Shown: piece after piece, positions 37,023 to 52,749 of the stretch
Position numbering within the stretch: position 1 is the first letter of the stretch
Layout: each line of letters starts with the position of its first letter
From: an uncultured Flavobacteriaceae bacterium
GTDB taxonomy: Bacteria > Pseudomonadota > Alphaproteobacteria > UBA8366 > Aestuariispiraceae
Assembly (NCBI GenBank): GCA_964352715.1
Contig: CAYGSU010000004.1
Coordinates: 56,888-120,887, forward strand
Reading direction: 5' to 3'
Length of the DNA stretch: 64,000 nt
The notes under the pieces: model-generated
Told to the model about the DNA's origin: nothing
What the model saw: the letters and a program-made list of their open reading frames with translations, nothing else
Database searches by the model: none
Made by a program: the position numbers and the translations under genes

Positions 37023-38609
37023 ATGACCGACGATCGAGACGACGATAAAAAGAGCCCTGACGACCGCCGTGAACCGCGATTGCCGTCTGCGTCCGGTCGC
37101 GAGGATCCCAGGCCGATCAAGCGGGGTGATTCCGCTGCGCCGCCGCTGCGCCCGTCCGCGGCGATGCGGACATATATGCGTCCCGCAAAACTTCAGCCGC
37201 GACTCGATCAGGAAGCCGAAAAGACCGCTGACACCCCCGAACAGAAACACCGAGTGGAAAAGCCGCAAGGCGAGCGCCTGACGGCTGACAAGCCATCCCG
37301 CGATGAAGCGCCGTCGCCGCGCGTGCAGCGCATGTCGGAACCGCGTGCGGCGAACGATAGCCAGACCGGCCCGACAGCGCCCCCGCCGCCGCTTCCTCCC
37401 TCCGTTGCCGGGGCAGAACCGCACCGGCCGAAACCCACAATGCGGGCTGACCCGCCCTCGACGACCAAGGAACAGGCTGCGGTACAACGGAATATTCGCA
37501 AACCGGAGGCGCAACAGCCCTCTGTGACAAGAACAACCGCCAGCCCGCCGGTGCCGTCGGCCGCGACGCGAACGCCCGATCAGCCATCGCCGCTGACAGA
37601 ACCGAAAGAACCAACCAAGCCGCCCGTGCCGCCGGCCGATCCGCCGGCCGCTGCAGAAGCGACGCCGCTGGAACCGAAACGGAAGAAGCCGGGTCTTGCA
37701 GCGCGCCTGTTTGGCCGGGGCAGGAAACTAAAGGCGGAACGCCTTAAAGCTGAAGCGCCATCTGGCGAAGCAAAGCCGGTTGCTGAAAATCCGGTGCGCA
37801 CAACCCTGCCGCCATCCGACACCAATGTCGAAGCGCTGCCGGCCCGGCCGGTCAAGGTCAAGCCGCAGCCGCGCCTGGTTCTTGAAAATGTTGGACTGGA
37901 AATCCGGTCGCTCGGCAAGCATTTCAAGAAACGGCCTGTTCTGCGGGATGTCTCGCTGCGGGTTCAGCGCGGCGAAGCGGTCGGTCTGCTGGGGCCGAAC
38001 GGCGCTGGTAAAACGACCTGCTTTTACATCGTGACCGGGCTGATTCCGGCCGATTACGGCGAAATTTTCCTTGATGGCCAGGACATCACGAGCCTGCCGA
38101 TGTATCGCCGTGCCCGCATGGGCATCGGCTATTTGCCACAGGAAGCGTCCATTTTCCGGGGCCTTACGGTGGAACAGAACATTCGGGCGGTGCTGGAGCT
38201 GGTTGAAAAAGACCTTGAGCGACGCGAAACCGCGCTCGAATCCCTGCTGGCGGAATTTTCGATCAGCCATCTACGGCGTACCCCGGCGATTGCACTGTCT
38301 GGCGGCGAACGCCGGCGTCTTGAAATTGCCCGTGCGCTCGCCAGCCAGCCGAATTTCATTCTGCTCGATGAACCTCTGGCAGGTATCGACCCGATTGCGG
38401 TTCGTGATATTCGCGATCTTGTCAGCCACCTCAAGGATCGCGGAATCGGTGTGCTTATTACCGACCACAATGTGCGCGAAACCCTGGAAATCGTCGACCG
38501 GGCTTACATTCTGCACGACGGCAATGTGTTGATGGAGGGGCCGCCGGCAGAAATCGTCGCCAATCAGGAAGTCCGGCGGGTTTACCTGGGCGATCGCTTT
38601 ACGCTTTGA
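37023..38609 (+). CDS. lptB: LPS export ABC ATPase LptB, in a frame carrying a Pro/Ala/Lys/Glu-rich N-terminal extension of about 284 codons (start uncertain)
   Basis: The ABC core begins near 37875 ([17 protein letters not shown]...[11 protein letters not shown]...[15 protein letters not shown]). The same frame is open back to ATG 37023. The only near-core start candidate is GTG 37794, which has no clear SD. Confidence 0.8.
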
Positions 38610-38622
38610 GGCCGGGAATGCG

Positions 38623-40167
38623 ATGGCGCTGACACCGCGACTGGACCTTCGCCAATCACAATCGCTGGTGATGACGCCTCAGTTGCAGCAGGCGATCAAG
38701 CTTCTGCAATACAACAATGTCGAACTGGCGCAATTCGTCGAAACCGAGCTTGAGCGTAACCCGATGCTGGAGCGCGACGAGGGGCAGGGCGATCCTGCAC
38801 GAGGTGAAACGGCGGAGCAGTCAACCTCCCTCGAATCCAGCGAGCGGCCGGACGAATTCAACGGCGATTCCGCCGAATTGCTGAAGCCGGACGGCATGGC
38901 CGATGGCGACAATGCACCCCTCGATGTCGACTACGGCAATCAATACGACTCCGATATCGTTGGCGGTGGCGCTGGTGGTGAGGCGCCCGATACGCTGGGT
39001 GGCGCGCACTGGTCCGGCGTCAGGGGCGGCGGTTCCGGTTTTGACGATATCGACGCCAATCTAGAAGCAACGCTTTCAGAACATGTCAGTCTGCGCGACC
39101 ATCTGATGGATCAGATGCAGATGGATATTGCCGATCCGGCCGACAGGCTGATCGCGGTTCATCTGATCGACCAACTGGACGGGTCAGGCTGGCTTTCCGG
39201 CGATCTTTCTTTTATCGCCGAAATGCTGGGCTGCACGCCGGATGATATCGAGCGGGTTCTGATCAAGTTACAGGGGCTTGATCCGGTCGGTGTCTTCGCC
39301 CGCGATCTCAAGGAATGCCTTGCGTTGCAGCTCGCCGAGCTGGACCGGCTTGACCCCGCCATGCAGACCATGCTCGACAATCTGGAAATGCTGGCGGCCC
39401 ATGACGCCAAGGGCCTGATGAAGAAATGCGGTGTCGACGAGGAAGACCTGCGTGAGATGGTTTCTGAAATCAGGGCGCTGAACCCGAAACCTGCCCTGGC
39501 CTTCAATACCGACATCATCGAACCGGTGGTTCCCGATATTCTGATGCGCCGGGCGCAGGATGGCGACTGGACGATCGAACTGAACCCGGAAACCCTGCCC
39601 CGTGTTCTGGTGAACGAGACCTATTTCGCCCGGATTTCGAAGGATATCCGAAAAAAACCGGAAACCGAATACCTGAACGAACAGTTCCAGTCGGCCAACT
39701 GGCTGGTCAAATCGCTGCATCAGCGGGCAACGACCATCATCAAGGTCGCAGGCGAGATCGTTCGGCAGCAGAACGCGTTTTTCGACAGGGGCGTCGCGCA
39801 TCTGCGCCCGTTGGTGCTGCGCGACATCGCAGAGGCCATCGAAATGCATGAAAGCACAGTCAGCCGGGTGACCACAAACAAGTACATTCACACGCCGCGC
39901 GGCCTGTTCGAGCTTAAGTTCTTCTTCACCTCGGCCATCAGCGGTACCGGTGGCGATTCATCCTATTCGGCCGAATCGGTTCGCCACCGGATCCGTACTC
40001 TGATCGACGCAGAGCCGCCGAAAGCCATCCTGTCGGACGACCAGATTGTTGAAATGCTGAAGACGGAAGGCATCGATATTGCCCGCCGCACGGTCGCTAA
40101 ATACCGCGAGGCGATGAAAATCCCATCTTCTGTACAGCGCCGGCGCCAGAAACAGCATGCAATCTAA
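38623..40167 (+). CDS. rpoN: RNA polymerase sigma-54 factor
   Basis: 514 aa. N-terminal Gln/Leu-rich region I, an acidic region II, and the C-terminal RpoN box ARRTVAKYRE. Confidence 0.95.
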   Translation: MALTPRLDLRQSQSLVMTPQLQQAIKLLQYNNVELAQFVETELERNPMLERDEGQGDPARGETAEQSTSLESSERPDEFNGDSAELLKPDGMADGDNAPLDVDYGNQYDSDIVGGGAGGEAPDTLGGAHWSGVRGGGSGFDDIDANLEATLSEHVSLRDHLMDQMQMDIADPADRLIAVHLIDQLDGSGWLSGDLSFIAEMLGCTPDDIERVLIKLQGLDPVGVFARDLKECLALQLAELDRLDPAMQTMLDNLEMLAAHDAKGLMKKCGVDEEDLREMVSEIRALNPKPALAFNTDIIEPVVPDILMRRAQDGDWTIELNPETLPRVLVNETYFARISKDIRKKPETEYLNEQFQSANWLVKSLHQRATTIIKVAGEIVRQQNAFFDRGVAHLRPLVLRDIAEAIEMHESTVSRVTTNKYIHTPRGLFELKFFFTSAISGTGGDSSYSAESVRHRIRTLIDAEPPKAILSDDQIVEMLKTEGIDIARRTVAKYREAMKIPSSVQRRRQKQHAI

Positions 40168-40418
40168 GGATTTTTTAAGGTTTCTACACACGCCTTGACT
40201 TCGGCTATGGCGATGGATAGCTTCCGCCACCGCTTGCGAGGGCAGGATATTCTACCCCGTCGGCAAGTTGAACATGGGGTGACGAGACGCCGTTTCGGAA
40301 TCGGAAATCGGCCTTACTCGGAAAAATTTAGGCGAACAGGCGGGGCAAAGTTATCATCGTCCCTTGCATTTCCTGTTCATGGCGGCATTCTTGAGGTTTA
40401 CGAGGGCTATATAATAAA

Positions 40419-41009
40419 ATGCAGCTATCGATTACCGGTAAAGGTATGGATATTGGCGCGGCGTTGCAGGAGTATGTCGAAAACCTGCTCCCCCCTGCGG
40501 TCACAAAGTACTTCGATAACACAACAGATGCGCAGGTAACCTTTTACAAGGAAGCCCATGAGTTTCGCGCCGATATCAAGGTGCACGTTTCCCGCCCTGT
40601 ATTCGTTCAGGGTTCTGGCAAGGGCGGTGATGCTCATTCGGCCTTCGACGAAGCCCTGCAGCATGTTGCAAAGCGGCTTCGCCGGAACAAGCGCAAGCTT
40701 CGCGACCAGAAACATCGCGGTGATGAAGATTCGCTGCCGGCCCTGCAGTATGTGATCGCGGCAGAGCCCGACCCTGTTGAAGGTGACGAGACCGAGAACG
40801 ATATCGTTAATAGCGATCCGGTAATCGTTGCTGAAATGCCCGGCAGCATTGACACGCTTTCGGTCAGCGAGGCCGTCATGCGGATGGACCTGTCCGGACA
40901 GAACGCCCTGATGTTTCGCAGTTCGAAACACGGTGGCTTGAACATGGTGTATCAGCGCGACGATGGAAACATCGGATGGGTTGACCCGAATACGACGTCA
41001 GAATCGTAA
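40419..41009 (+). CDS. hpf: ribosome hibernation promoting factor (long form)
   Basis: MQLSITGKGMDIGAALQEYV... and a C-terminal dimerisation domain. It is in the conserved position after rpoN. Confidence 0.88.
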   Translation: MQLSITGKGMDIGAALQEYVENLLPPAVTKYFDNTTDAQVTFYKEAHEFRADIKVHVSRPVFVQGSGKGGDAHSAFDEALQHVAKRLRRNKRKLRDQKHRGDEDSLPALQYVIAAEPDPVEGDETENDIVNSDPVIVAEMPGSIDTLSVSEAVMRMDLSGQNALMFRSSKHGGLNMVYQRDDGNIGWVDPNTTSES

Positions 41010-41102
41010 GAATGGCTTGGCTGGCGACCAGAGAGCGCCGGAAGAAAGCCCGGTTTAGACAATACTGATCAGTTTTTAAATTGCTTCTTTGAGGTTGCTA
41101 CC

Positions 41103-41567
41103 ATGGAGATTGCAGATCTTTTATCGCCGGACGCGATCGTTCCCGCCCTTAGCGTTTCTTCCAAGAAGCAGACGCTGACGGAACTTGCGCGGCGCGCGGC
41201 TGAACATCTCGGCCTGGATCAGCGCGAAGTGTTCGAAACGCTACTGGAACGGGAGCGGCTGGGTACGACCGGCGTCGGCAATGGCATTGCCATCCCGCAC
41301 GGCAAACTGAACAGCGTTTCCCGGCCGGTCGGCCTGTTTGCGCGGCTGGAAAAGCCGGTCGATTTCGATTCCGTCGATGATATGCCTGTCGACCTGATCT
41401 TTCTTCTGCTGGCGCCTGAAACCGCCGGTGCGGACCATCTGAAAGCGCTGGCGCGGGTATCCCGCGTGCTGCGCGATCAGGCGGTTTGCAAGAAACTTCG
41501 CGGTTCCACAGAAAAAGACGCGATTTACGCGCTGCTCATCGACAACGCGCACAGCCACGCAGCCTGA
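41103..41567 (+). CDS. ptsN: PTS-Ntr enzyme IIA (PtsN)
   Basis: 154 aa with phospho-His motif GNGIAIPHGK. Confidence 0.88.
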   Translation: MEIADLLSPDAIVPALSVSSKKQTLTELARRAAEHLGLDQREVFETLLERERLGTTGVGNGIAIPHGKLNSVSRPVGLFARLEKPVDFDSVDDMPVDLIFLLLAPETAGADHLKALARVSRVLRDQAVCKKLRGSTEKDAIYALLIDNAHSHAA

Positions 41568-41593
41568 CAGGCGGCACCCGCCAGCACTCAATT

Positions 41594-42013
41594 CTAGTCG
41601 TCCGGTGTTGTGATCGGAATTGTCTCGACAGCATCTTCTGCGGTCGGGTGATCGATATCGATATGCAGCAGCCCGTTAGCCAGCAAGGCCGATCTGACGC
41701 GCATGCCTTCGGCCAGCAGGAAGCTCCGCTGGAACTGTCGCGCCGCAATGCCGCGGTGAAGAAACTGCTTGGTGTCGTTTTCTTCCGCCTGTCGACCCAG
41801 AATGGTCAGTTGCGGCCCGTGTCGTTCGACGGAGAGCTGGCTTTCACGAAACCCGGCGACAGCCAGCGTGATTCGGGTCAGCCCGCCGTCGAGCTGTTCG
41901 ATATTGTAGGGCGGATACCCTTCCGCCGTCATTTTCGATACCCGCTCCAATGTGGCTTCCAGGTCATCGAAACCCAACATCAGCGGACTGTTGAAATAGC
42001 GCATGCGTGGCAT
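41594..42013 (-). CDS. Hsp20/alpha-crystallin small heat-shock protein
   Basis: Alpha-crystallin domain YPPYNIEQLDGGLTRITLAVAGF...GLLHIDI. The start is ambiguous (42025 GTG, 42013 or 42004 ATG). Confidence 0.85.
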   Translation of the reverse strand: MPRMRYFNSPLMLGFDDLEATLERVSKMTAEGYPPYNIEQLDGGLTRITLAVAGFRESQLSVERHGPQLTILGRQAEENDTKQFLHRGIAARQFQRSFLLAEGMRVRSALLANGLLHIDIDHPTAEDAVETIPITTPDD

Positions 42014-42078
42014 GATCGTTTTCACCGAACCTGTTGCGGGCGTCAGTGTAGTTTGATGAGGCGACGGAGAAAAGAACC

Positions 42079-42537
42079 TCAGACGTCGAGTCTGAATTTC
42101 AGCTCAAGACGGTTCTCGCCGTCAACGCGCCGGTAGCCTGTGATCGAACAATAATGCAGGATCAACGGCCAGCCGAGCCGACCGACCGGACGATCCTCAA
42201 GCTGGTCGTCCCGGCTGTCAGGCGGCAGGTCCGTGGCAGGGTTGAAGGCCGCGCCGCTGTCCCGGAAGCTGATCGCGATGCCGTCGGTCAGGACCGCCAG
42301 TTTCAAGCCGATCTCGGAATTCGGTTGGGCCTGGCTATGCATGACCATGTTCGCCAGCAGTTCCTCCAGGATGAGCTGCAATGCCATCCGGTTGCGCATC
42401 GTCAGCGTTTCCTGCCGGTCGAGCCATGTATCGAGCGGCTGCAACACATCGTCCATAACCGAGTCCGTAAACGGTACGGTGATCTGCAATGCGCCATCGG
42501 GCTCTGTATTTTCTGTCTGTTTACCAGAATTCGTCAT
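42079..42537 (-). CDS. RsbW/SpoIIAB-like anti-sigma-type serine kinase (HATPase_c_2)
   Basis: 152 aa. N-box LEELLANMVMHS, G1 DSGAAFNP and G2 GRLGWPLI. Confidence 0.7.
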   Translation of the reverse strand: MTNSGKQTENTEPDGALQITVPFTDSVMDDVLQPLDTWLDRQETLTMRNRMALQLILEELLANMVMHSQAQPNSEIGLKLAVLTDGIAISFRDSGAAFNPATDLPPDSRDDQLEDRPVGRLGWPLILHYCSITGYRRVDGENRLELKFRLDV

Positions 42538-42606
42538 TTGTACTCGCCTATCACCGGTCTGATGACGTAGTCTTGGGAACAGTCGCGGGAAACAGGAGAT
42601 TTTGGA

Positions 42607-43056
42607 ATGCGAATATCATTCGGGCCTTTAACCCAGATCGCCGGGTTTGTTTTGGTGCTTTCGCTGGGTACTGCGCATGCGGAAGAGATCGGACGCATCA
42701 AAGGCGCGGTCGGTGATGCTACCATCGAACGATCAGGCGAAACCATCAAACCGAAACCCGGCCAGATTCTGGAACAGTCAGATGTCCTGCAAACCGGGCC
42801 GACAGGCCGTGTCGCGGCAACTTTTGTCGATAACAGCCGGTTTTCGGCCGGCCCTAACAGCCGGGTGGAACTGTCGAAATTCGCATATGACCCGACAACC
42901 CAGGAAGGCGAATTCCTCGCTTCGGTCGAAAAGGGGTCGCTGGCGATCGTGTCCGGCAAGATTGCCAAATCGACACCTGACGCCATGAAGGTCAAGCTGC
43001 CATCCGCGATCCTCGGCGTTCGCGGCACCCGTTTTGTTGTAGAGGTGTCGCAGTGA
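42607..43056 (+). CDS. FecR-domain periplasmic protein
   Basis: AGGAGA SD and a signal peptide. FecR-like beta-rich domain GRIKGAVGDATIERSGETIKPKPGQILEQSDVLQTGPTGRVAATFVDNSRF. Confidence 0.7.
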   Translation: MRISFGPLTQIAGFVLVLSLGTAHAEEIGRIKGAVGDATIERSGETIKPKPGQILEQSDVLQTGPTGRVAATFVDNSRFSAGPNSRVELSKFAYDPTTQEGEFLASVEKGSLAIVSGKIAKSTPDAMKVKLPSAILGVRGTRFVVEVSQ

Positions 43057-43643
43057 TTCGCCATATTCTCCTTTGCATGGCGCTTGCTGTTTCGCTGGCC
43101 GCCTGTTCCAGCGACAAGATTGTGTTGCTGCCTGACGGCGAAGGACATACCGGTGCTGTTGCTGTTCTGTCCGATGACGGGCAGGAAAGGGCGCTGATTA
43201 CCGAAGCCTACGAGACGGCGTCTGTCAGTTCTTCTTCCGTGAGCATCAATACACAGAATGAAGAAACGGTTTCTGCCGCCTACGGAGAACTGCTGGATGG
43301 CCTGCCGCCGGAACCGAAATCGTTTCTGCTGTATTTCGTTCGCGGCACGTCCCGACTGATTGAGTCGTCGAAAACGGTCCTGCCGTCGATTTTTTCGGAA
43401 ATCGAAAGTCGGCCAGGCGCCCAGGTTCAGGTTACCGGCCATACCGATACGGTCGGCACGATCGCGGACAATGACAGGCTGTCGCGCGAACGCGCGATTG
43501 TCATCAGGGACTGGCTCATCGAACAGGGCATGGATGCTGAACTGGTCAGCGCGGTCGGTCGCGGCGAACGGGAATTGCTTATCGAAACCGGTGACGAAAC
43601 CTCGGAACCGGCGAATCGGCGGGTTCAGATTATCGTTCGGTAG
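43053..43643 (+). CDS. OmpA-family peptidoglycan-binding lipoprotein
   Basis: Lipobox LAAC. C-terminal OmpA_C motif VTGHTDTVGTIADNDRLSRERAIVIRDWL...NRRVQI. It overlaps the fecR-like gene by 4 nt. Confidence 0.8.
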   Translation: MIRHILLCMALAVSLAACSSDKIVLLPDGEGHTGAVAVLSDDGQERALITEAYETASVSSSSVSINTQNEETVSAAYGELLDGLPPEPKSFLLYFVRGTSRLIESSKTVLPSIFSEIESRPGAQVQVTGHTDTVGTIADNDRLSRERAIVIRDWLIEQGMDAELVSAVGRGERELLIETGDETSEPANRRVQIIVR

Positions 43644-43663
43644 TCGATCTGATGGCTGCCCTG

Positions 43664-45820
43664 TCATGTTGCCTGTTCCGGCCCCTTGTACCGGACGGCC
43701 ATTACGGTAACGTCATCAACCGGATCCCCGCCGTCTTCAAAGGCCCGAACGCTATCGACGACATTGCGCACGACAGCGTATGAATCGCCCGAATTGGCCT
43801 TGGCGATGGCCTTTACCAGGCGATCCCGGCCGAACAGTTCGTCGTCAAGGCTGCGGGCTTCTGTAACACCGTCGGTTACGATGATCAGCGTATCGCCCGG
43901 TTCAAGCGTGATCGTTTCCTGAAAATACGGGAAATCGTCCATCACACATAAAGGCAACCCGCCGTCGGAATTAATATCGACGACGTCACCATTCGGCTTC
44001 AGAATTTGCGGGTCTTCATGGCCGGCATTGCAGTATTCAACAAGGCCGGTGTTGCAATGCAGGATGCCGGCGAAAGCCGTGACGAAGAGCGATGCCGGGT
44101 TTTCACGCGACAGTTCCATGTTTGCCTGGGTCATCAGTTCGGCCACCTGACCCTGCAGGCGCAAAGCGGCGCTTTTGCACAGCGCTTTCGACAGGGCCAT
44201 GAACAGGGCCGCCGGCACGCCCTTGCCGGTGACGTCGCCGACGACAAAGTAAATCCGGTCATCATCAAGCGTGAAGGCGTCAAACAGGTCGCCGCCGACC
44301 TCCTTTGCGGAAATCAGAACCGCACCGACATCGACCGTGACGGGCAAAGCGCGCAGACTGTCAGTATCCGGCAGGATGCCAAGCTGGATTTCGCGCGCCG
44401 CTTTCAGTTCACCGGCGATCCGCGCCGCTTGCAGCCGTTCGTTTTCAAGCTCCGTCTGCAATGCTTTCCTGCGCCGGACATTCTGGGCTAGCAGCGACGA
44501 CAGCATCGTTGCGTAGACCAGCACGATGCCACCCGACGGCAGGATCGGATCGATCAGCAGGCCGGATGAAACGAACCCGGCGTATCCCAGCGCACCGTTG
44601 ATCAGCACAAAGCCGGCCGCCAGCACCAGTCCGACAAACTGCGGAAGCATCGGCATTGTTACGATCAACAGCAGTGCACCAAAGGCCATCATCGCGACTT
44701 CGGCATAGACCATCCAGTGCGGTCGCTGAATGCGGACACCCGACAGCAACTGTTCGATGGCCTGGGCCTGTATTTCAACCGCCGTCATTCGTTCGCCCAG
44801 CGGCGTCGCCGTCCTGTCGGCAATCCCGACGGCTGTCGCACCGATCAGCACGACCTGATTTTCAAATCGGTCAGCCGCTATTGTTCCGGCGAGAACGTCT
44901 TTGGCGGAAACGAACCTGTTTGCATCCGACGGGGTAAAATACAGATCCATCGACCCGTCCCGGTTGGTCTGCAGCGGATCGCCGTCAAGGCCCAGCCGGA
45001 TCGACGATATACCGCTTTCCGTACCGTCCATTTCCAGCCAGATGTCATTGGTGACAAGCCGCAGGACCTCGACGGAAAATGCCGGGGCGGGTTTTCCGTT
45101 GATATTGAGCATCAGGGGCACCCGCCGGACGATGCCGTCCAGCTCAGGCGCGGCATTCAGATATCCGCGTCCCTGTGCAACCGATTCCAGCAGCTCGAGA
45201 TTGGTTATCCGGCTGTTATAGGCCGGCAGAAAGCCCACCAGGGACGGATCCTTGCTGGCGACCGAGGTTTCCGGAAGCGTGTCCGGCGCTGCCACAATGT
45301 TACTGTTCACGGCGGCGCGGCCCAGGGCGACCGGCACACTACCGAGTGATTCCGCCAGGATGGAATCCGTCGATTCCAGGGTCGCCAGCGCCGCTGCCAG
45401 ATCTTCCGGCAGGCCGGGATAGGTCGACAGGGCTCTAGACGGTGAAAGCCGGTCTTCTTCCGGCATGATCATCGTCAGGCCGATGGACAGAGAGCCACTG
45501 AAAAACGTGTTGAGAACCAGATCGGCCAGTTGGGTGCGCGGCCAGGGCCATTGACCGTATTCTTCAAGGCTGGCGTCGTCGATGGCGACAATAACAACCG
45601 GATAGGTTTCCTGCTGGCGCGGATGCAGACGCTGGTAGGTGTCGAAAACGGTTGACCGCAAAGGGGCGAAGACATGGTCGGGCAACAGCATCGATACCGC
45701 AATGATCGCTACCAGAATGGCGCTGGCGACAATCCTGCCGGTGTCGAGGCGCATCATGTCAGCGAAGAATCCGTTCGGCTGTGCCGATTTTCTGTCAGAC
45801 AACGTGCGGGCGCGTTGCAT
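43664..45820 (-). CDS. CHASE2 sensor - transmembrane - PP2C (SpoIIE/RsbU-type) phosphatase
   Basis: 718 aa. CHASE2 hallmark YGQWPWPR, three or four TM helices around residues 400-470, and PP2C motifs GGDLFD, GDVTGKGVPAAL and TDGVTEA. Confidence 0.85.
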   Translation of the reverse strand: MQRARTLSDRKSAQPNGFFADMMRLDTGRIVASAILVAIIAVSMLLPDHVFAPLRSTVFDTYQRLHPRQQETYPVVIVAIDDASLEEYGQWPWPRTQLADLVLNTFFSGSLSIGLTMIMPEEDRLSPSRALSTYPGLPEDLAAALATLESTDSILAESLGSVPVALGRAAVNSNIVAAPDTLPETSVASKDPSLVGFLPAYNSRITNLELLESVAQGRGYLNAAPELDGIVRRVPLMLNINGKPAPAFSVEVLRLVTNDIWLEMDGTESGISSIRLGLDGDPLQTNRDGSMDLYFTPSDANRFVSAKDVLAGTIAADRFENQVVLIGATAVGIADRTATPLGERMTAVEIQAQAIEQLLSGVRIQRPHWMVYAEVAMMAFGALLLIVTMPMLPQFVGLVLAAGFVLINGALGYAGFVSSGLLIDPILPSGGIVLVYATMLSSLLAQNVRRRKALQTELENERLQAARIAGELKAAREIQLGILPDTDSLRALPVTVDVGAVLISAKEVGGDLFDAFTLDDDRIYFVVGDVTGKGVPAALFMALSKALCKSAALRLQGQVAELMTQANMELSRENPASLFVTAFAGILHCNTGLVEYCNAGHEDPQILKPNGDVVDINSDGGLPLCVMDDFPYFQETITLEPGDTLIIVTDGVTEARSLDDELFGRDRLVKAIAKANSGDSYAVVRNVVDSVRAFEDGGDPVDDVTVMAVRYKGPEQAT

Positions 45821-45829
45821 GCATCCAGC

Positions 45830-46795
45830 CTAGACCGACAGTTCCAGGCCGTCGTACGAGCAGGTGATCTCAAGGGGCGTGCCGCCGCCGCGCATGATTT
45901 CCTCATACCGCAGGGTTTCGCCATGAACCTTGAAAATCATTTCGTCATCATAGACCGGCTCGTGATGGAACATCGCCAGATGCTTCACCCCGGCCTGGTG
46001 GCACAGATCGACAGCCACGATATTACTTGAATGCCCCCAGTCTTCCTTGATCGAGATTGCATCGGCCAGCGAATACATCGTGTCCATGATCAGCAGGTCA
46101 GCGTCTTTGAAGAAGTTCACGACGGAATCGATTTCTTCCGGGTCTTCCAGTTTGTGTTCGGCATCGGTTGAATAAACCAGCACGTGGCCGTCTTTTTCAA
46201 AGCGATAACCAAAGGAATCGCCGTGGTGATGCTGTTTTTTCGCTGTGACCGTCATGCCGGCGATTTCATAGGTCCGGTTCAGCTCAAGCTGCACGAATTC
46301 ACGCTTTGCGCCCATGAATTCGAGCGGAACCGGGAAGCTGGGATTCTCCTGCTGCCGCCGCAGAACGCCCTCGATATCCGCATGCCCGCCGTAAAACTTG
46401 ATCGTGTTGTTCGGGTTGAAGGCAGGCACGAAGAAGGGGAAGCCCATTATGTGGTCCCAGTGCGGATGTGACAGAAAGATATGGTAGGTACCTTCCCGTC
46501 CGTCCTCGCCGATCCGGCGCAGGGAATCGAGACCGAACTCGCGCAGGCCCGACCCCATATCGCAAACCACGAATTCGTTGCTACCGGATTCGATTTCGAC
46601 ACAGGAAGAGGCGCCGCCATAGGTCCCTCTTTGCGGAAAAGACAGTTCGTCGCGCACGAAACCCTGCGCCGCTGCATCGTCATCGAAGCGGCGACCCGAG
46701 GCGGCCTTGACCGCAGCAACAATCTTTTCCTCGACAGTAGCCGCTTTCATGGCCTTTGGCAGCGAACCGCGTGTACCCCAGAACCGTACCTGCAT
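45830..46795 (-). CDS. MBL-fold metallo-hydrolase
   Basis: Metal motif LSHPHWDH (HxHxDH). The start is ATG 46795, 2 nt after the STAS stop (or an overlapping GTG 46798). The stop lies 9 nt before the phosphatase start. Confidence 0.8.
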   Translation of the reverse strand: MQVRFWGTRGSLPKAMKAATVEEKIVAAVKAASGRRFDDDAAAQGFVRDELSFPQRGTYGGASSCVEIESGSNEFVVCDMGSGLREFGLDSLRRIGEDGREGTYHIFLSHPHWDHIMGFPFFVPAFNPNNTIKFYGGHADIEGVLRRQQENPSFPVPLEFMGAKREFVQLELNRTYEIAGMTVTAKKQHHHGDSFGYRFEKDGHVLVYSTDAEHKLEDPEEIDSVVNFFKDADLLIMDTMYSLADAISIKEDWGHSSNIVAVDLCHQAGVKHLAMFHHEPVYDDEMIFKVHGETLRYEEIMRGGGTPLEITCSYDGLELSV

Positions 46796-46797
46796 CA

Positions 46798-47142
46798 CTA
46801 AGGCCTCGTTGCCGCGATGGCGTCATCCAGTCCGCCATGCACCGTGAACAGTTTGTCGAACCGGCTGATCTGGAAAATTTCGGTCAGGGTTTCGCCAAGC
46901 CGGCAGACGGATATCGGTGTCGATCCCTGTTTCGCCGCTTTCGCCGCCAACATCAGAACCCGCAACCCGACGGAACTCATATAATCGACGCCATCCATGT
47001 CGATTACGACGCCGCTTGTAGCACCTGCTTCGTCGATCGCCGGCAGCAACGCTACTTCAAACGTCGCCGCCGTGTTGTGGTCGATCGAACCCTTGGGTGC
47101 AATTACGATTGTATCTGCATTGACCGTCTTTTCGACGTCCAT
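46798..47142 (-). CDS. STAS-domain anti-sigma-factor antagonist (RsbV/SpoIIAA-like)
   Basis: 114 aa with a phosphorylatable-Ser motif, DGVDYMSSVGLRVL. Confidence 0.8.
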   Translation of the reverse strand: MDVEKTVNADTIVIAPKGSIDHNTAATFEVALLPAIDEAGATSGVVIDMDGVDYMSSVGLRVLMLAAKAAKQGSTPISVCRLGETLTEIFQISRFDKLFTVHGGLDDAIAATRP

Positions 47143-47341
47143 TGCCAGACTCCCTTCCAGCCGTATCCATTATTAACGGAACATTCCGCTGCGCGCACAG
47201 TAACAACCAATCGGACCAAGCGGAAGCCATGCCGCGGCCTATAAAGGGCAATCCGCTTCAAATCGTGTCGCGAACGCTGCAACAAGGTTAACGGCTGTTG
47301 ATTGTTTTGGTTTCCAGCGATGTTACCGGGTTTTTGCCGGG

Positions 47342-47788
47342 TTATTCGTGCCGCGCTTGGCAGGTGAAGAATTCCAGGCTGAGGGACCCGCCACCGGGCG
47401 ACGGCGCCATGATCAGGGCGTTTTCGCCGTCGACATGCATTGTCGCCGTCCGCTCGCCACCAAGCACTAGAATGGTCTGCGAGGAATGCCTGTCGTGATA
47501 TCGCGCAGCAATCGGCAGATAACTGCGTCCGAAGGATGTTTCCCGTTGCACGTTGTTTTCGTTGAAGTCCAGCACCAGGGTATCGGGATTGTTGACGGTC
47601 TTTGGCCGACAGCCCTGTGTTTCACTTGACGAGCAGAGCGCGGTGTAGTCGCCCTGCTGGCATTCCCAAACAACGGCTTCTTTCCACATAGACTGTGAAC
47701 CGCTCTCGCTGGAGGCTGCGAGAACTTCTCCAATGGCAAAAATTGCAATAATAACCAGCAACACAATGACAAGTTTTGGGACTTTCAC
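47342..47788 (-). CDS. hypothetical secreted or membrane-anchored Cys-containing protein
   Basis: N-terminal hydrophobic helix MKVPKLVIVLLVIIAIFAIGEVLA and four Cys in the mature part. I recognise no family. Confidence 0.5.
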   Translation of the reverse strand: MKVPKLVIVLLVIIAIFAIGEVLAASSESGSQSMWKEAVVWECQQGDYTALCSSSETQGCRPKTVNNPDTLVLDFNENNVQRETSFGRSYLPIAARYHDRHSSQTILVLGGERTATMHVDGENALIMAPSPGGGSLSLEFFTCQARHE

Positions 47789-47862: not shown

Positions 47863-48411
47863 ATGTCTGTGAAAGAACTAATTATTCAGCATTTTAAAGG
47901 TTTGGGAGGTCCAGCTTTGGTTACGATATACGTGGATGCCGATGCCTGCCCGGTAAAGGCGGAGGTTGAACGTGTCGCAGACCGGCACGGGTTGAAGACA
48001 GTTCTGGTCAGCGATGGCGGAATCCGGCCGAGCCCGCATCCGCTGATCAAAGTCGTCACCGTGGCGCGCGGTGCAGACGCCGCCGACGACTGGATTGCCG
48101 ATGCCATCGATGCGGACGATATCTGTGTCACCAACGATATTCCGCTGGCGGCACGGTGTCTGAAGAAGGACGCCCGCGCCATCAGACCGAACGGCGAACC
48201 CTTCACCCAGGCTGGAATCGGCATGACTCTGGCGACACGGGACCTGATGCATGGCCTGCGCGAAACCGGCGCCATCACCGGCGGTCCGAAACCGTTCTCG
48301 AAAGCCGACCGGTCTGCCTTTCTCAACAGATTTGAAACCATGGTGCAGGCCGCCAAACGCTCGGCCGCCGACAGGCCGGCCGGGGTCGACATCAAATCTT
48401 CACAAAAATAG
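47863..48411 (+). CDS. YaiI/YqxD family protein (UPF0178, DUF188)
   Basis: Conserved N-terminus IYVDADACPVK and TNDIPLAA. The start is uncertain. Confidence 0.7.
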   Translation: MSVKELIIQHFKGLGGPALVTIYVDADACPVKAEVERVADRHGLKTVLVSDGGIRPSPHPLIKVVTVARGADAADDWIADAIDADDICVTNDIPLAARCLKKDARAIRPNGEPFTQAGIGMTLATRDLMHGLRETGAITGGPKPFSKADRSAFLNRFETMVQAAKRSAADRPAGVDIKSSQK

Positions 48412-48420
48412 CATTTCAAT

Positions 48421-48440
48421 AGTTCAACAAGTATTGAACT
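48421..48440. promoter_or_regulatory. inverted repeat AGTTCAA-N6-TTGAACT, candidate ArsR operator
   Basis: Perfect 7-bp arms ending 8 nt upstream of the arsR ATG. TATAAAT follows immediately at 48441-48447. Confidence 0.55.
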
Positions 48441-48448
48441 ATAAATCC

Positions 48449-48802
48449 ATGACTGAAGATGATGCTGTTATCAGGCTTGCGGCGTTGGCAAACGCCAATC
48501 GCCTTTCCGTATTCCGGCTGCTGGCGGCGGCGGGCGAGGATGGGCTTCTGGCCGGCGACATCGCATCACAATGCGGCATGCAGCCGTCCAACCTGTCGTT
48601 CCACCTGGCGCATCTGGTCCGCGCCAAACTGATCGCGCCGGATCGTGAAGGGCGCAATATCCGATATCGTCTTATTCTTGCAGAGACCCGCGACACGCTC
48701 GATTTCCTGATCGGCGACTGTTGCGGCGGCCACCCGGAACTCTGCCTGCCGACGCAGGAATCCTGCCTGCCGGCGACCACACTAAGAGCGAAAAGGAGCT
48801 GA
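48449..48802 (+). CDS. arsR: ArsR/SmtB-family metalloregulator
   Basis: [29 protein letters not shown]...[15 protein letters not shown], a winged HTH. C-terminal Cys cluster [11 protein letters not shown]. Confidence 0.85.
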
Positions 48803-52242: not shown

Positions 52243-52318
<76 letters not shown>

Positions 52319-52425: not shown

Positions 52426-52749
52426 CTAGTCGTCGTCGGTCGGTTTCACGACCGGTGGCACGTCGTCGTCTTCGTCCAGGTCGCTGGTATCTTCCAGCAT
52501 CGTATCGTCGTCATCATCGACATCGTCGTCATCATCGTCATCGCTGACATCGTCGACTTCCGCTTCCTTGGCCTTTTTCTTGGCGTCGTCATTGGCCGGT
52601 GCGCCGCGTCCGCGCTTCAGTTTTGTCGCCGCTTCCGGATCGAACGTCTCCGAGCAGGCGGGACACACGATCGGGTCGCTTTGCAGATCATAGAACTTCG
52701 CGCCGCAGCTGAGGCAGATGCGCTTGATGCCGAGTTCCGGTTTGGCCAC
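52426..52749 (-). CDS. TIGR02300-type FYDLN_acid zinc-ribbon protein with a poly-Asp tail
   Basis: GTG 52749 with AAGGAG upstream. VAKPELGIKRICLSCGAKFYDLQSDPIVCPACSETF, followed by a D/E-rich C-terminus. Confidence 0.8.
   Translation of the reverse strand: MAKPELGIKRICLSCGAKFYDLQSDPIVCPACSETFDPEAATKLKRGRGAPANDDAKKKAKEAEVDDVSDDDDDDDVDDDDDTMLEDTSDLDEDDDVPPVVKPTDDD

Follow-up and report, generated by a model that had tools for sequence, protein, structure and literature searches.

The window analysed here is a stretch of 64,000 nucleotides (nt) from an uncultured bacterium placed in the Aestuariispiraceae (assembly GCA_964352715.1, contig CAYGSU010000004.1, positions 56,888 to 120,887). It carries a group of six genes, identified from the listing of open reading frames (ORFs) together with Pfam and NCBIfam scans, which encode the components of a partner-switching phosphorylation system, a hydrolase of the metallo-beta-lactamase (MBL) fold and two proteins of the cell envelope.

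Three of the genes are tightly packed on the minus strand. The first gene of this operon (46798-47142) encodes a STAS protein of the anti-sigma antagonist type (114 amino acids; PF01740, 1.1e-15; TIGR00377, 1.4e-21). It is followed by the gene of the MBL-fold hydrolase (45830-46795; 321 amino acids; Pfam Lactamase_B_2, 1.4e-17) and by that of a protein of 718 amino acids combining a CHASE2 domain with a SpoIIE/PP2C phosphatase domain (43664-45820; Pfam CHASE2, PF05226, 1e-47; SpoIIE, 3e-47). TAGTGATG contains both the stop codon of STAS and the start codon of MBL, and the spacer between the MBL and PP2C genes is 9 nt. On the plus strand, the genes of a FecR-domain protein with a signal peptide (42607-43056; 149 amino acids; Pfam FecR, 3.3e-9; LipL45-like) and of an OmpA_C-like lipoprotein (43053-43643; 196 amino acids; Pfam OmpA, 6.8e-18; YiaD/YfiB/Pal-like in NCBIfam; lipobox LAAC-S) share 4 nt and face the 3′ end of the PP2C gene in convergent orientation, across a gap of 20 nt. 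The sixth gene (42079-42537, minus strand) is monocistronic, encodes an RsbW/SpoIIAB-like GHKL serine kinase of 152 amino acids (HATPase_c_2, 2.3e-10) and is divergent from the FecR gene. The 69-bp intergenic region between the two (42538-42606) presumably contains a bidirectional promoter; its counterparts measure 42 bp in Tsuneonella and 119 bp in Hwanghaeella. A terminator-like hairpin with a T-run, detected as a pattern match in a consensus scan, lies on the kinase stop codon (42078-42096, minus strand), before a downstream hsp20 gene, and a non-coding region (47143-47341, minus strand) precedes the STAS-MBL-PP2C operon. The domain scans agree with the initial annotation of the window as to the identity, position and strand of all six genes and the convergence of the FecR/OmpA pair on the operon.

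Components of the cassette

The STAS protein consists of a single domain, scores above the cut-off of the TIGR00377 model and matches antagonists of anti-sigma factors, SpoIIAA and RsfB among PDB sequences. Within its YMSSVGL motif, Ser57 aligns with Ser58, the phospho-acceptor of SpoIIAA, and both serines of the motif are at least 90% conserved among 75 homologues, which confirms the phosphoserine motif noted initially. The PP2C/SpoIIE domain occupies residues 519-711 behind a coiled linker, and its metal-binding and catalytic aspartates (D511, D529, D650 and D702/703) do not vary among 17 homologues. The kinase scores 41 bits with HATPase_c_2 (cut-off 27.4) and carries invariant N-box (E58/E59/N63/H67), G1 (D93/G95/F98) and G2 (G119/G122) motifs. 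Its AlphaFold2 model (mean predicted local distance difference test, pLDDT, 84.5) retrieves UsfX, SpoIIAB and RsbW as top matches in Foldseek, with template-modelling scores (TM-scores) of 0.6-0.7. A word-index homology search with the kinase gave just 14 matches, because this protein evolves fast. Hydropathy analysis detects no membrane segments in the STAS, MBL and kinase proteins. The hallmarks of partner switching are therefore all found here: a SpoIIE-type phosphatase with intact aspartates, a STAS protein with a phosphorylatable serine and a GHKL kinase with N, G1 and G2 boxes. Nothing in their sequences marks any of the four cytoplasmic components, whether catalytic or switch, as a pseudo-protein.

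The phosphatase is also the membrane component of the cassette. Hydropathy analysis reveals hydrophobic segments at residues 24-54 and 368-445, corresponding to a first transmembrane segment (~28-48), a periplasmic CHASE2 domain (~50-367) and three further transmembrane segments (~368-445). This is the layout of a CHASE2 sensor, with an extracytoplasmic CHASE2 domain preceded by one and followed by three transmembrane segments and then by the output domain. The FecR protein comprises a periplasmic FecR domain behind its signal peptide, and its closest named model is of the LipL45 type. It has neither an N-terminal anti-sigma domain nor a transmembrane anchor and so does not qualify as an anti-sigma factor of the FecI-FecR-FecA kind, and no extracytoplasmic function sigma factor was found near its gene in the window or among the flanking genes of related loci. 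Its partner carries the lipobox LAAC and a peptidoglycan-binding OmpA_C-like domain; FecR and OmpA_C are here separate, translationally coupled proteins. We infer that FecR, OmpA and CHASE2 form a trans-envelope sensing complex. PADLOC defence models gave no meaningful match to the cassette; just the OmpA domain weakly resembles ZorB, which is MotB-like.

The MBL-fold enzyme appears cytoplasmic, with neither a transmembrane segment nor a signal peptide in hydropathy analysis. All its metal ligands are invariant: the HxHxDH motif (H110, H112, D114, H115), H190, D211, H255 and H277/278. Its AlphaFold2 model (pLDDT 81) retrieves with Foldseek, at TM-scores of 0.5-0.6, the Bacillus anthracis ElaC homologue (1zkp), RNase Z (1y44; 0.59), YhfI (6kns) and PhnP (3g1p), as well as PqqB and yeast PDE1; Apyc1, an anti-Pycsar nuclease, is a weaker match. 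When the PDB was searched with a profile, RNase Z, BA1088 and YhfI came back, each with an E-value of only ~1e-6. With RNase Z/ElaC, YhfI and PhnP the enzyme shares the HxHxDH binuclear-metal fold and an N-terminal GT.G..P motif, a kinship which at these E-values and TM-scores is remote. Unlike them, its family has a specific N-terminal helical insertion (residues ~14-55) and a strictly conserved loop, YSLAD..S.KEDWGHSS (residues 242-255), modelled with low confidence. The RNase Z model TIGR02651 yields 67.6 bits against a cut-off of 292.95, below the level for an equivalog, and the secondary structure summarised from the AlphaFold2 model gave no sign of a tRNA-binding arm. On the evidence of its modelled fold, the protein is a phosphodiesterase-type enzyme (RNase Z/PhnP/YhfI type) without a characterised close relative, for which nucleotide second messengers or RNA ends are the obvious candidate substrates. 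A precomputed PF23023 tag on its homologues was not reproduced in our Pfam scan and was not used.

Conservation across genomes

Databases contain more than 1,100 homologues with the CHASE2-PP2C architecture. Scanning one genome per GTDB species yielded at least 550 CHASE2-PP2C relatives, of which the best 80 were fetched with 10-kb flanks and searched with the window proteins and then with hidden Markov models built from the matches. The counts given here rest on the 65 loci with sufficient flank on both sides. The CHASE2-PP2C gene is accompanied by STAS, MBL and FecR genes in 61 of these 65 loci each, by OmpA in 60 and by the kinase in 58, and the exact order STAS-MBL-PP2C> <OmpA-FecR kinase> is retained in 51. 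Co-conservation of the six genes is strong, and their clustering is not due to chance. Their co-occurrence and shared neighbourhood, which the initial annotation had put forward for checking, are thus borne out. The hosts are Alpha-, Beta-, Gamma- and Deltaproteobacteria, Rokubacteria/Methylomirabilota, Eisenbacteria and others; among isolates, gene calls reveal all six genes in Tsuneonella dongtanensis (CP016591.1) and Hwanghaeella grinnelliae.

The MBL gene is missing from few loci and, where present, always occupies the position between the STAS and PP2C genes. In some Deltaproteobacteria the kinase gene lies beside STAS, and the STAS-MBL-PP2C trio occurs alone in three loci (L042, L044, L061). 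In one locus (L036, 3389-5705) the OmpA-FecR gene pair is present twice, in tandem, downstream of the one CHASE2-PP2C gene. A Methylophaga metagenome-assembled genome (L072, 7309-12805) has an OmpA-FecR pair, a glutaminase gene and then, on the opposite strand, CHASE2-PP2C-STAS-kinase.

The components diverge at different rates. Median pairwise identity is highest for MBL (57%), followed by PP2C (48%), FecR (46%), STAS (45%), OmpA (42%) and CHASE2 (37%), with the kinase as the fastest-evolving part (33%). That MBL is the most conserved component suggests, as far as identity levels can tell, that it may act on a universal substrate. The distance matrices of the components are congruent for all pairs (r = 0.80-0.91), and the module has therefore been inherited as a unit.

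No conserved gene beyond the six emerged from all-versus-all clustering of 5,835 flanking ORFs, in which the next cluster is found in 14 loci. In a Pfam scan of the 131 immediately flanking genes the largest family accounts for 5 of them, and neighbours differ from genome to genome. ORFs of 580-591 amino acids downstream of PP2C in two of the loci with the bare trio (L044, 12018-13760; L061, 11986-13761; both minus strand) were considered as a new partner and rejected as antisense shadow ORFs lying over an ADH-like gene and proC. The window has a similar ORF of 377 amino acids (42534-43667, minus strand), which lacks a Pfam match, is antisense to FecR/OmpA and was likewise rejected as a gene. 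These long shadow ORFs (377-591 amino acids) are rich in Arg, His and Gly, match no family and sit on top of real genes; they could mislead gene callers that select the longest ORF.

Full-length CHASE2-PP2C proteins were not found on plasmids in PLSDB; only the CHASE2 part has matches there, being ~33% identical to CHASE2 adenylate cyclases encoded on rhizobial megaplasmids and chromids.

Output of the switch

The most informative evidence on what the switch controls comes from protein fusions. A search with the MBL protein against 1.84 billion representative proteins returned 652 relatives at E <= 1e-30, and the best 150, all aligned across essentially the whole of the MBL protein, were examined. 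In 45 of these 150 best family representatives a STAS domain is part of the same polypeptide: 7 have the order STAS-MBL (~450 amino acids) and 38 the order MBL-STAS, 28 of the latter exceeding 1,000 amino acids. Most fusions keep the serine (e.g. FMTSAGLR, YTSSMGLR, YISSAGLR) and their linkers are Ala/Pro-rich. The presence of both domain orders, the nature of the linkers and the retention of the serine in most cases indicate that the fusions are not gene-calling artefacts of the operon. As Rosetta-stone evidence, the fusions suggest that the MBL family works in physical contact with a STAS domain. One STAS-MBL fusion (P0369) has its HxHxDH motif degenerated to SDLRWDH and may be a catalytically dead member retained for binding.

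Three of the large fusions (1,202-1,607 amino acids) were scanned and have the architecture MBL-STAS-Ser/Thr protein kinase-AAA_16(-TPR). Giant MBL-STAS proteins of this size (1,200-1,660 amino acids; P0271, P0274, P0279 and some 25 more) carry an N-terminal MBL domain 37-45% identical to the window enzyme, and the proteins with kinase and AAA_16 domains look like an undescribed signalling family which reuses the STAS-MBL unit. In the MBL-STAS-kinase fusions a Hanks-type kinase stands in place of the RsbW-like kinase; the invariant pair is therefore STAS and MBL, while kinases and sensors are interchangeable.

On the strength of the STAS fusions (45 among the best 150 representatives), the MBL enzyme becomes the leading explanation for the output, and the module probably carries its output with it. 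The initial annotation had called the module an orphan with an undefined output. It had named the MBL protein as a possible target, and this part stands; it undersold the output, for which the fusions make MBL the leading candidate. We lean towards reading the cassette as a phospho-switch with an internal enzymatic output, that is, a STAS-gated MBL phosphodiesterase following a SiaABCD-like logic, with no sigma factor. In such a scheme, the secreted FecR protein and the peptidoglycan-bound OmpA-like lipoprotein would pass an envelope signal to CHASE2. The cytoplasmic PP2C domain, whose catalytic residues are conserved, would then remove the phosphate from Ser57 of the STAS protein, as family knowledge suggests, and the RsbW-like GHKL kinase, with its ATP-binding motifs and fold, would put it back. 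The phosphorylation state of the STAS protein would control the MBL phosphodiesterase through direct binding, for which the fusions and co-conservation argue. The output would be hydrolysis of a phosphodiester in a nucleotide second messenger or at an RNA end, and no sigma factor would be released.

Several observations weigh against a STAS-gated MBL output. The MBL protein falls far below the family cut-offs of the NCBIfam models for RNase Z and cyclic-nucleotide phosphodiesterases. The mirror-tree comparison did not single out the STAS-MBL pair, all pairs lying at r = 0.80-0.91, and shows co-inheritance only. CHASE2-PP2C occurs without MBL in 4 of the 65 loci (L062, L072, L075, L077), and two of these retain the kinase, one of them (L072) also STAS. 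As L072 and L062 keep switch genes without MBL, the switch can exist without this enzyme. Finally, the closest structural relatives of the kinase, UsfX, SpoIIAB and RsbW, are true anti-sigma factors, which leaves room for a second, distant target.

The last two points are also what a classical partner switch would predict, in which the RsbW-like kinase sequesters a distant sigma factor or other regulator, dephosphorylated STAS frees this target and MBL is accessory or co-regulated. The STAS protein is of the anti-sigma-antagonist type, and L072, a rare variant, lacks MBL and retains STAS, kinase and PP2C together. Orphan switches with remote targets do exist, for example RbaVWY (PMC3999984; reviewed in PMC8256260), and HsbA/FlgM, BtrUVW and the chlamydial Rsb proteins provide further models. 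However, no sigma-family gene recurs among the 131 flanking genes and the module spans phyla with very different sigma repertoires. The rapid evolution of the kinase (33% median identity) is a poor fit to a protein that binds a conserved RNA polymerase subunit, and a distant target leaves the STAS-MBL fusions unexplained. We consider this alternative unlikely.

The MBL enzyme could also act at the input, making or destroying a small molecule or otherwise activating the phosphatase upstream of STAS, with the true output elsewhere. In the RsbQ-RsbP pair a hydrolase is co-transcribed with a PP2C phosphatase and required by it (PMC3183031), and here too the phosphatase gene comes immediately after that of MBL, at a spacing of 9 nt. 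Such an RsbQ-like role is harder to reconcile with the phosphatase, in which neither Pfam nor hydropathy analysis revealed a PAS-like cytoplasmic ligand-binding domain between the last transmembrane segment and the PP2C domain. The fusions, too, are overwhelmingly to STAS: against the 45 of these there is one to the phosphatase (P0359), an apparent MBL-CHASE2/PP2C fusion fragment. An input role therefore seems improbable.

The window contains no sigma-70-family gene. In Tsuneonella dongtanensis and Hwanghaeella grinnelliae the module neither includes nor borders on one, and the 25 most frequent families of the 131 genes that flank it in relatives do not include a sigma-70 domain. A cognate sigma factor directly adjacent to the module, which would have contradicted the initial annotation, was thus found neither among these flanking genes nor in the two isolates, which supports the description of the module as one of partner-switching type that lacks a cognate SigB/SigF-type sigma factor. 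The broader wording, that no sigma factor lies nearby, holds for the sigma-70 family but overlooked rpoN (sigma-54; 38623-40167), four genes and 1.9 kb from the kinase. This gene belongs to an lptB-rpoN-hpf-ptsN block which is followed by an IbpA-like hsp20 gene on the opposite strand (37023-42025), ending 53 bp from the kinase. The ORF listed as lptB, of 528 amino acids, is probably an over-extended call, because its ABC domain begins at residue 307. In Hwanghaeella (L082), where rpoN is ~7 kb from the kinase, and in L001, the block is found no more than ~5 kb away from the module. The adjacency is absent in Tsuneonella and nearly all other loci, and we read it as lineage-specific synteny. 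Upstream of the operon (47143-47341) there is no sigma-54 consensus (TGGCAC-N5-TTGC), its count in the window being that expected by chance, and no EcfG-type consensus (GGAAC-N15-18-CGTT), for which match counts are again those of chance. Sigma-54 is not known to be a target of RsbW-type proteins. Regulation of sigma-54, or of neighbouring PTS-Ntr/HPF functions, is suggested by the lptB-rpoN-hpf-ptsN-hsp20 block alongside the kinase and in the two related loci, and is very improbable in view of its absence elsewhere and of the missing promoter.

An ORF of 148 amino acids with an N-terminal hydrophobic segment (47342-47788, minus strand) adjoins the STAS operon upstream on the same strand; its only match, to DUF6520, is sub-threshold, and it is not kept beside the module in other genomes. 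Further on (47863-48802, plus strand), a YaiI/YqxD-family ORF and an ArsR-family regulator ORF overlap by ~160 nt as listed, and the true start of the latter is probably further downstream. A tRNA-Ala(GGC) gene (52243-52318) adjoins a tandem repeat (52500-52555) with a 9-nt period and ~6 copies of TCGTCATCG, within the coordinates of an ORF of 147 amino acids.

Relation to known systems and significance

Partner switching is usually taught as a means of controlling sigma factors, and cases with an enzyme as output, such as SiaABCD, are few. With the RsbU-RsbV-RsbW/SigB and SpoIIE-SpoIIAA-SpoIIAB/SigF systems, the cassette shares three protein families, the conserved phosphoserine and the kinase fold. 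In contrast to both, none of the genomes examined has a cognate sigma gene within the module or close to it, an enzyme gene sits between the STAS and phosphatase genes, and the kinase is transcribed separately.

In SiaABCD of Pseudomonas aeruginosa, the phosphatase SiaA, the kinase SiaB and the switch protein SiaC control the enzyme SiaD (PMC7647112, PMC8457831, PMC7278518). Common to both systems are a PP2C phosphatase bound to the membrane, a small kinase of the GHKL type, a small switch protein controlled by Ser/Thr phosphorylation, predicted in the present case, and an enzyme encoded in the cluster as the output, a proposed role here, with no sigma factor. They differ in the sensor, which is here a periplasmic CHASE2 domain with FecR and OmpA partners, in the switch protein, here a canonical PF01740 STAS protein and not a member of the SiaC family, and in the output, here the proposed MBL-fold phosphodiesterase in place of the GGDEF cyclase SiaD. 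The NCBIfam SiaA model gives the present phosphatase 29.9 bits against a cut-off of 700. By analogy, the cassette would work like SiaABCD with non-orthologous parts, without being a member of that system.

Switches with outputs other than SigB also include HsbR-HsbA (HptB pathway), BtrUVW, SypE-SypA and the chlamydial RsbU/V/W proteins (PMC8256260, PMC4552016). As proposed for the present cassette, the phosphorylation state of the STAS protein selects partners other than an anti-sigma factor of the SigB type, and some of these systems have periplasmic sensor phosphatases. They lack CHASE2, FecR/OmpA partners and an MBL hydrolase, and their phosphatases are linked to REC or other domains.

The envelope components have parallels of their own. 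In Burkholderia, a LysM-FecR protein is encoded with a CHASE2 histidine kinase in the 'BiofilmReg' operon (PMC5192318), and in Campylobacterota a FecR protein, a cAMP phosphodiesterase and a TPR protein are encoded with CHASE2 adenylate cyclases (PMC9239204). As in these clusters, a CHASE2 sensor is found beside a secreted FecR-domain protein and a peptidoglycan-binding module, which is LysM in the precedents and OmpA_C here; the adenylate cyclase clusters also encode a phosphodiesterase, as the present cassette does. The transmitter differs, being a histidine kinase or cyclase in the precedents and here a PP2C phosphatase that would act via STAS.

Full-text searches of open-access papers and bioRxiv retrieved no report of CHASE2 with partner switching, of STAS or partner switching with an MBL protein, or of a CHASE2-PP2C/STAS/MBL module, and no experimentally studied member of the cassette. 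A partner-switching-type phospho-switch with an enzyme output has precedent; the parts and combination of the present cassette are undescribed in the literature searched.

The cassette brings together three poorly understood elements: the CHASE2 domain, the recurring FecR and peptidoglycan-binding partner, and a highly conserved MBL family that is often fused to STAS. It is widespread across several phyla, with Tsuneonella dongtanensis, Hwanghaeella grinnelliae, Duganella spp. and Dechloromonas spp. among the hosts in culture, and the analysis yields the specific hypothesis that STAS gates a phosphodiesterase. More tentatively, the STAS and MBL pair might be a previously unrecognised and widely reused output device, a phosphodiesterase or nuclease toggled by phosphorylation of the STAS serine and driven here by the CHASE2/FecR/OmpA cassette and elsewhere by the giant MBL-STAS-Ser/Thr kinase-AAA-TPR proteins. 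If this is true, and if the enzyme acts on a nucleotide second messenger or on a tRNA or other RNA, the cassette would link envelope signals in a new way to the clearance of second messengers or to growth arrest.

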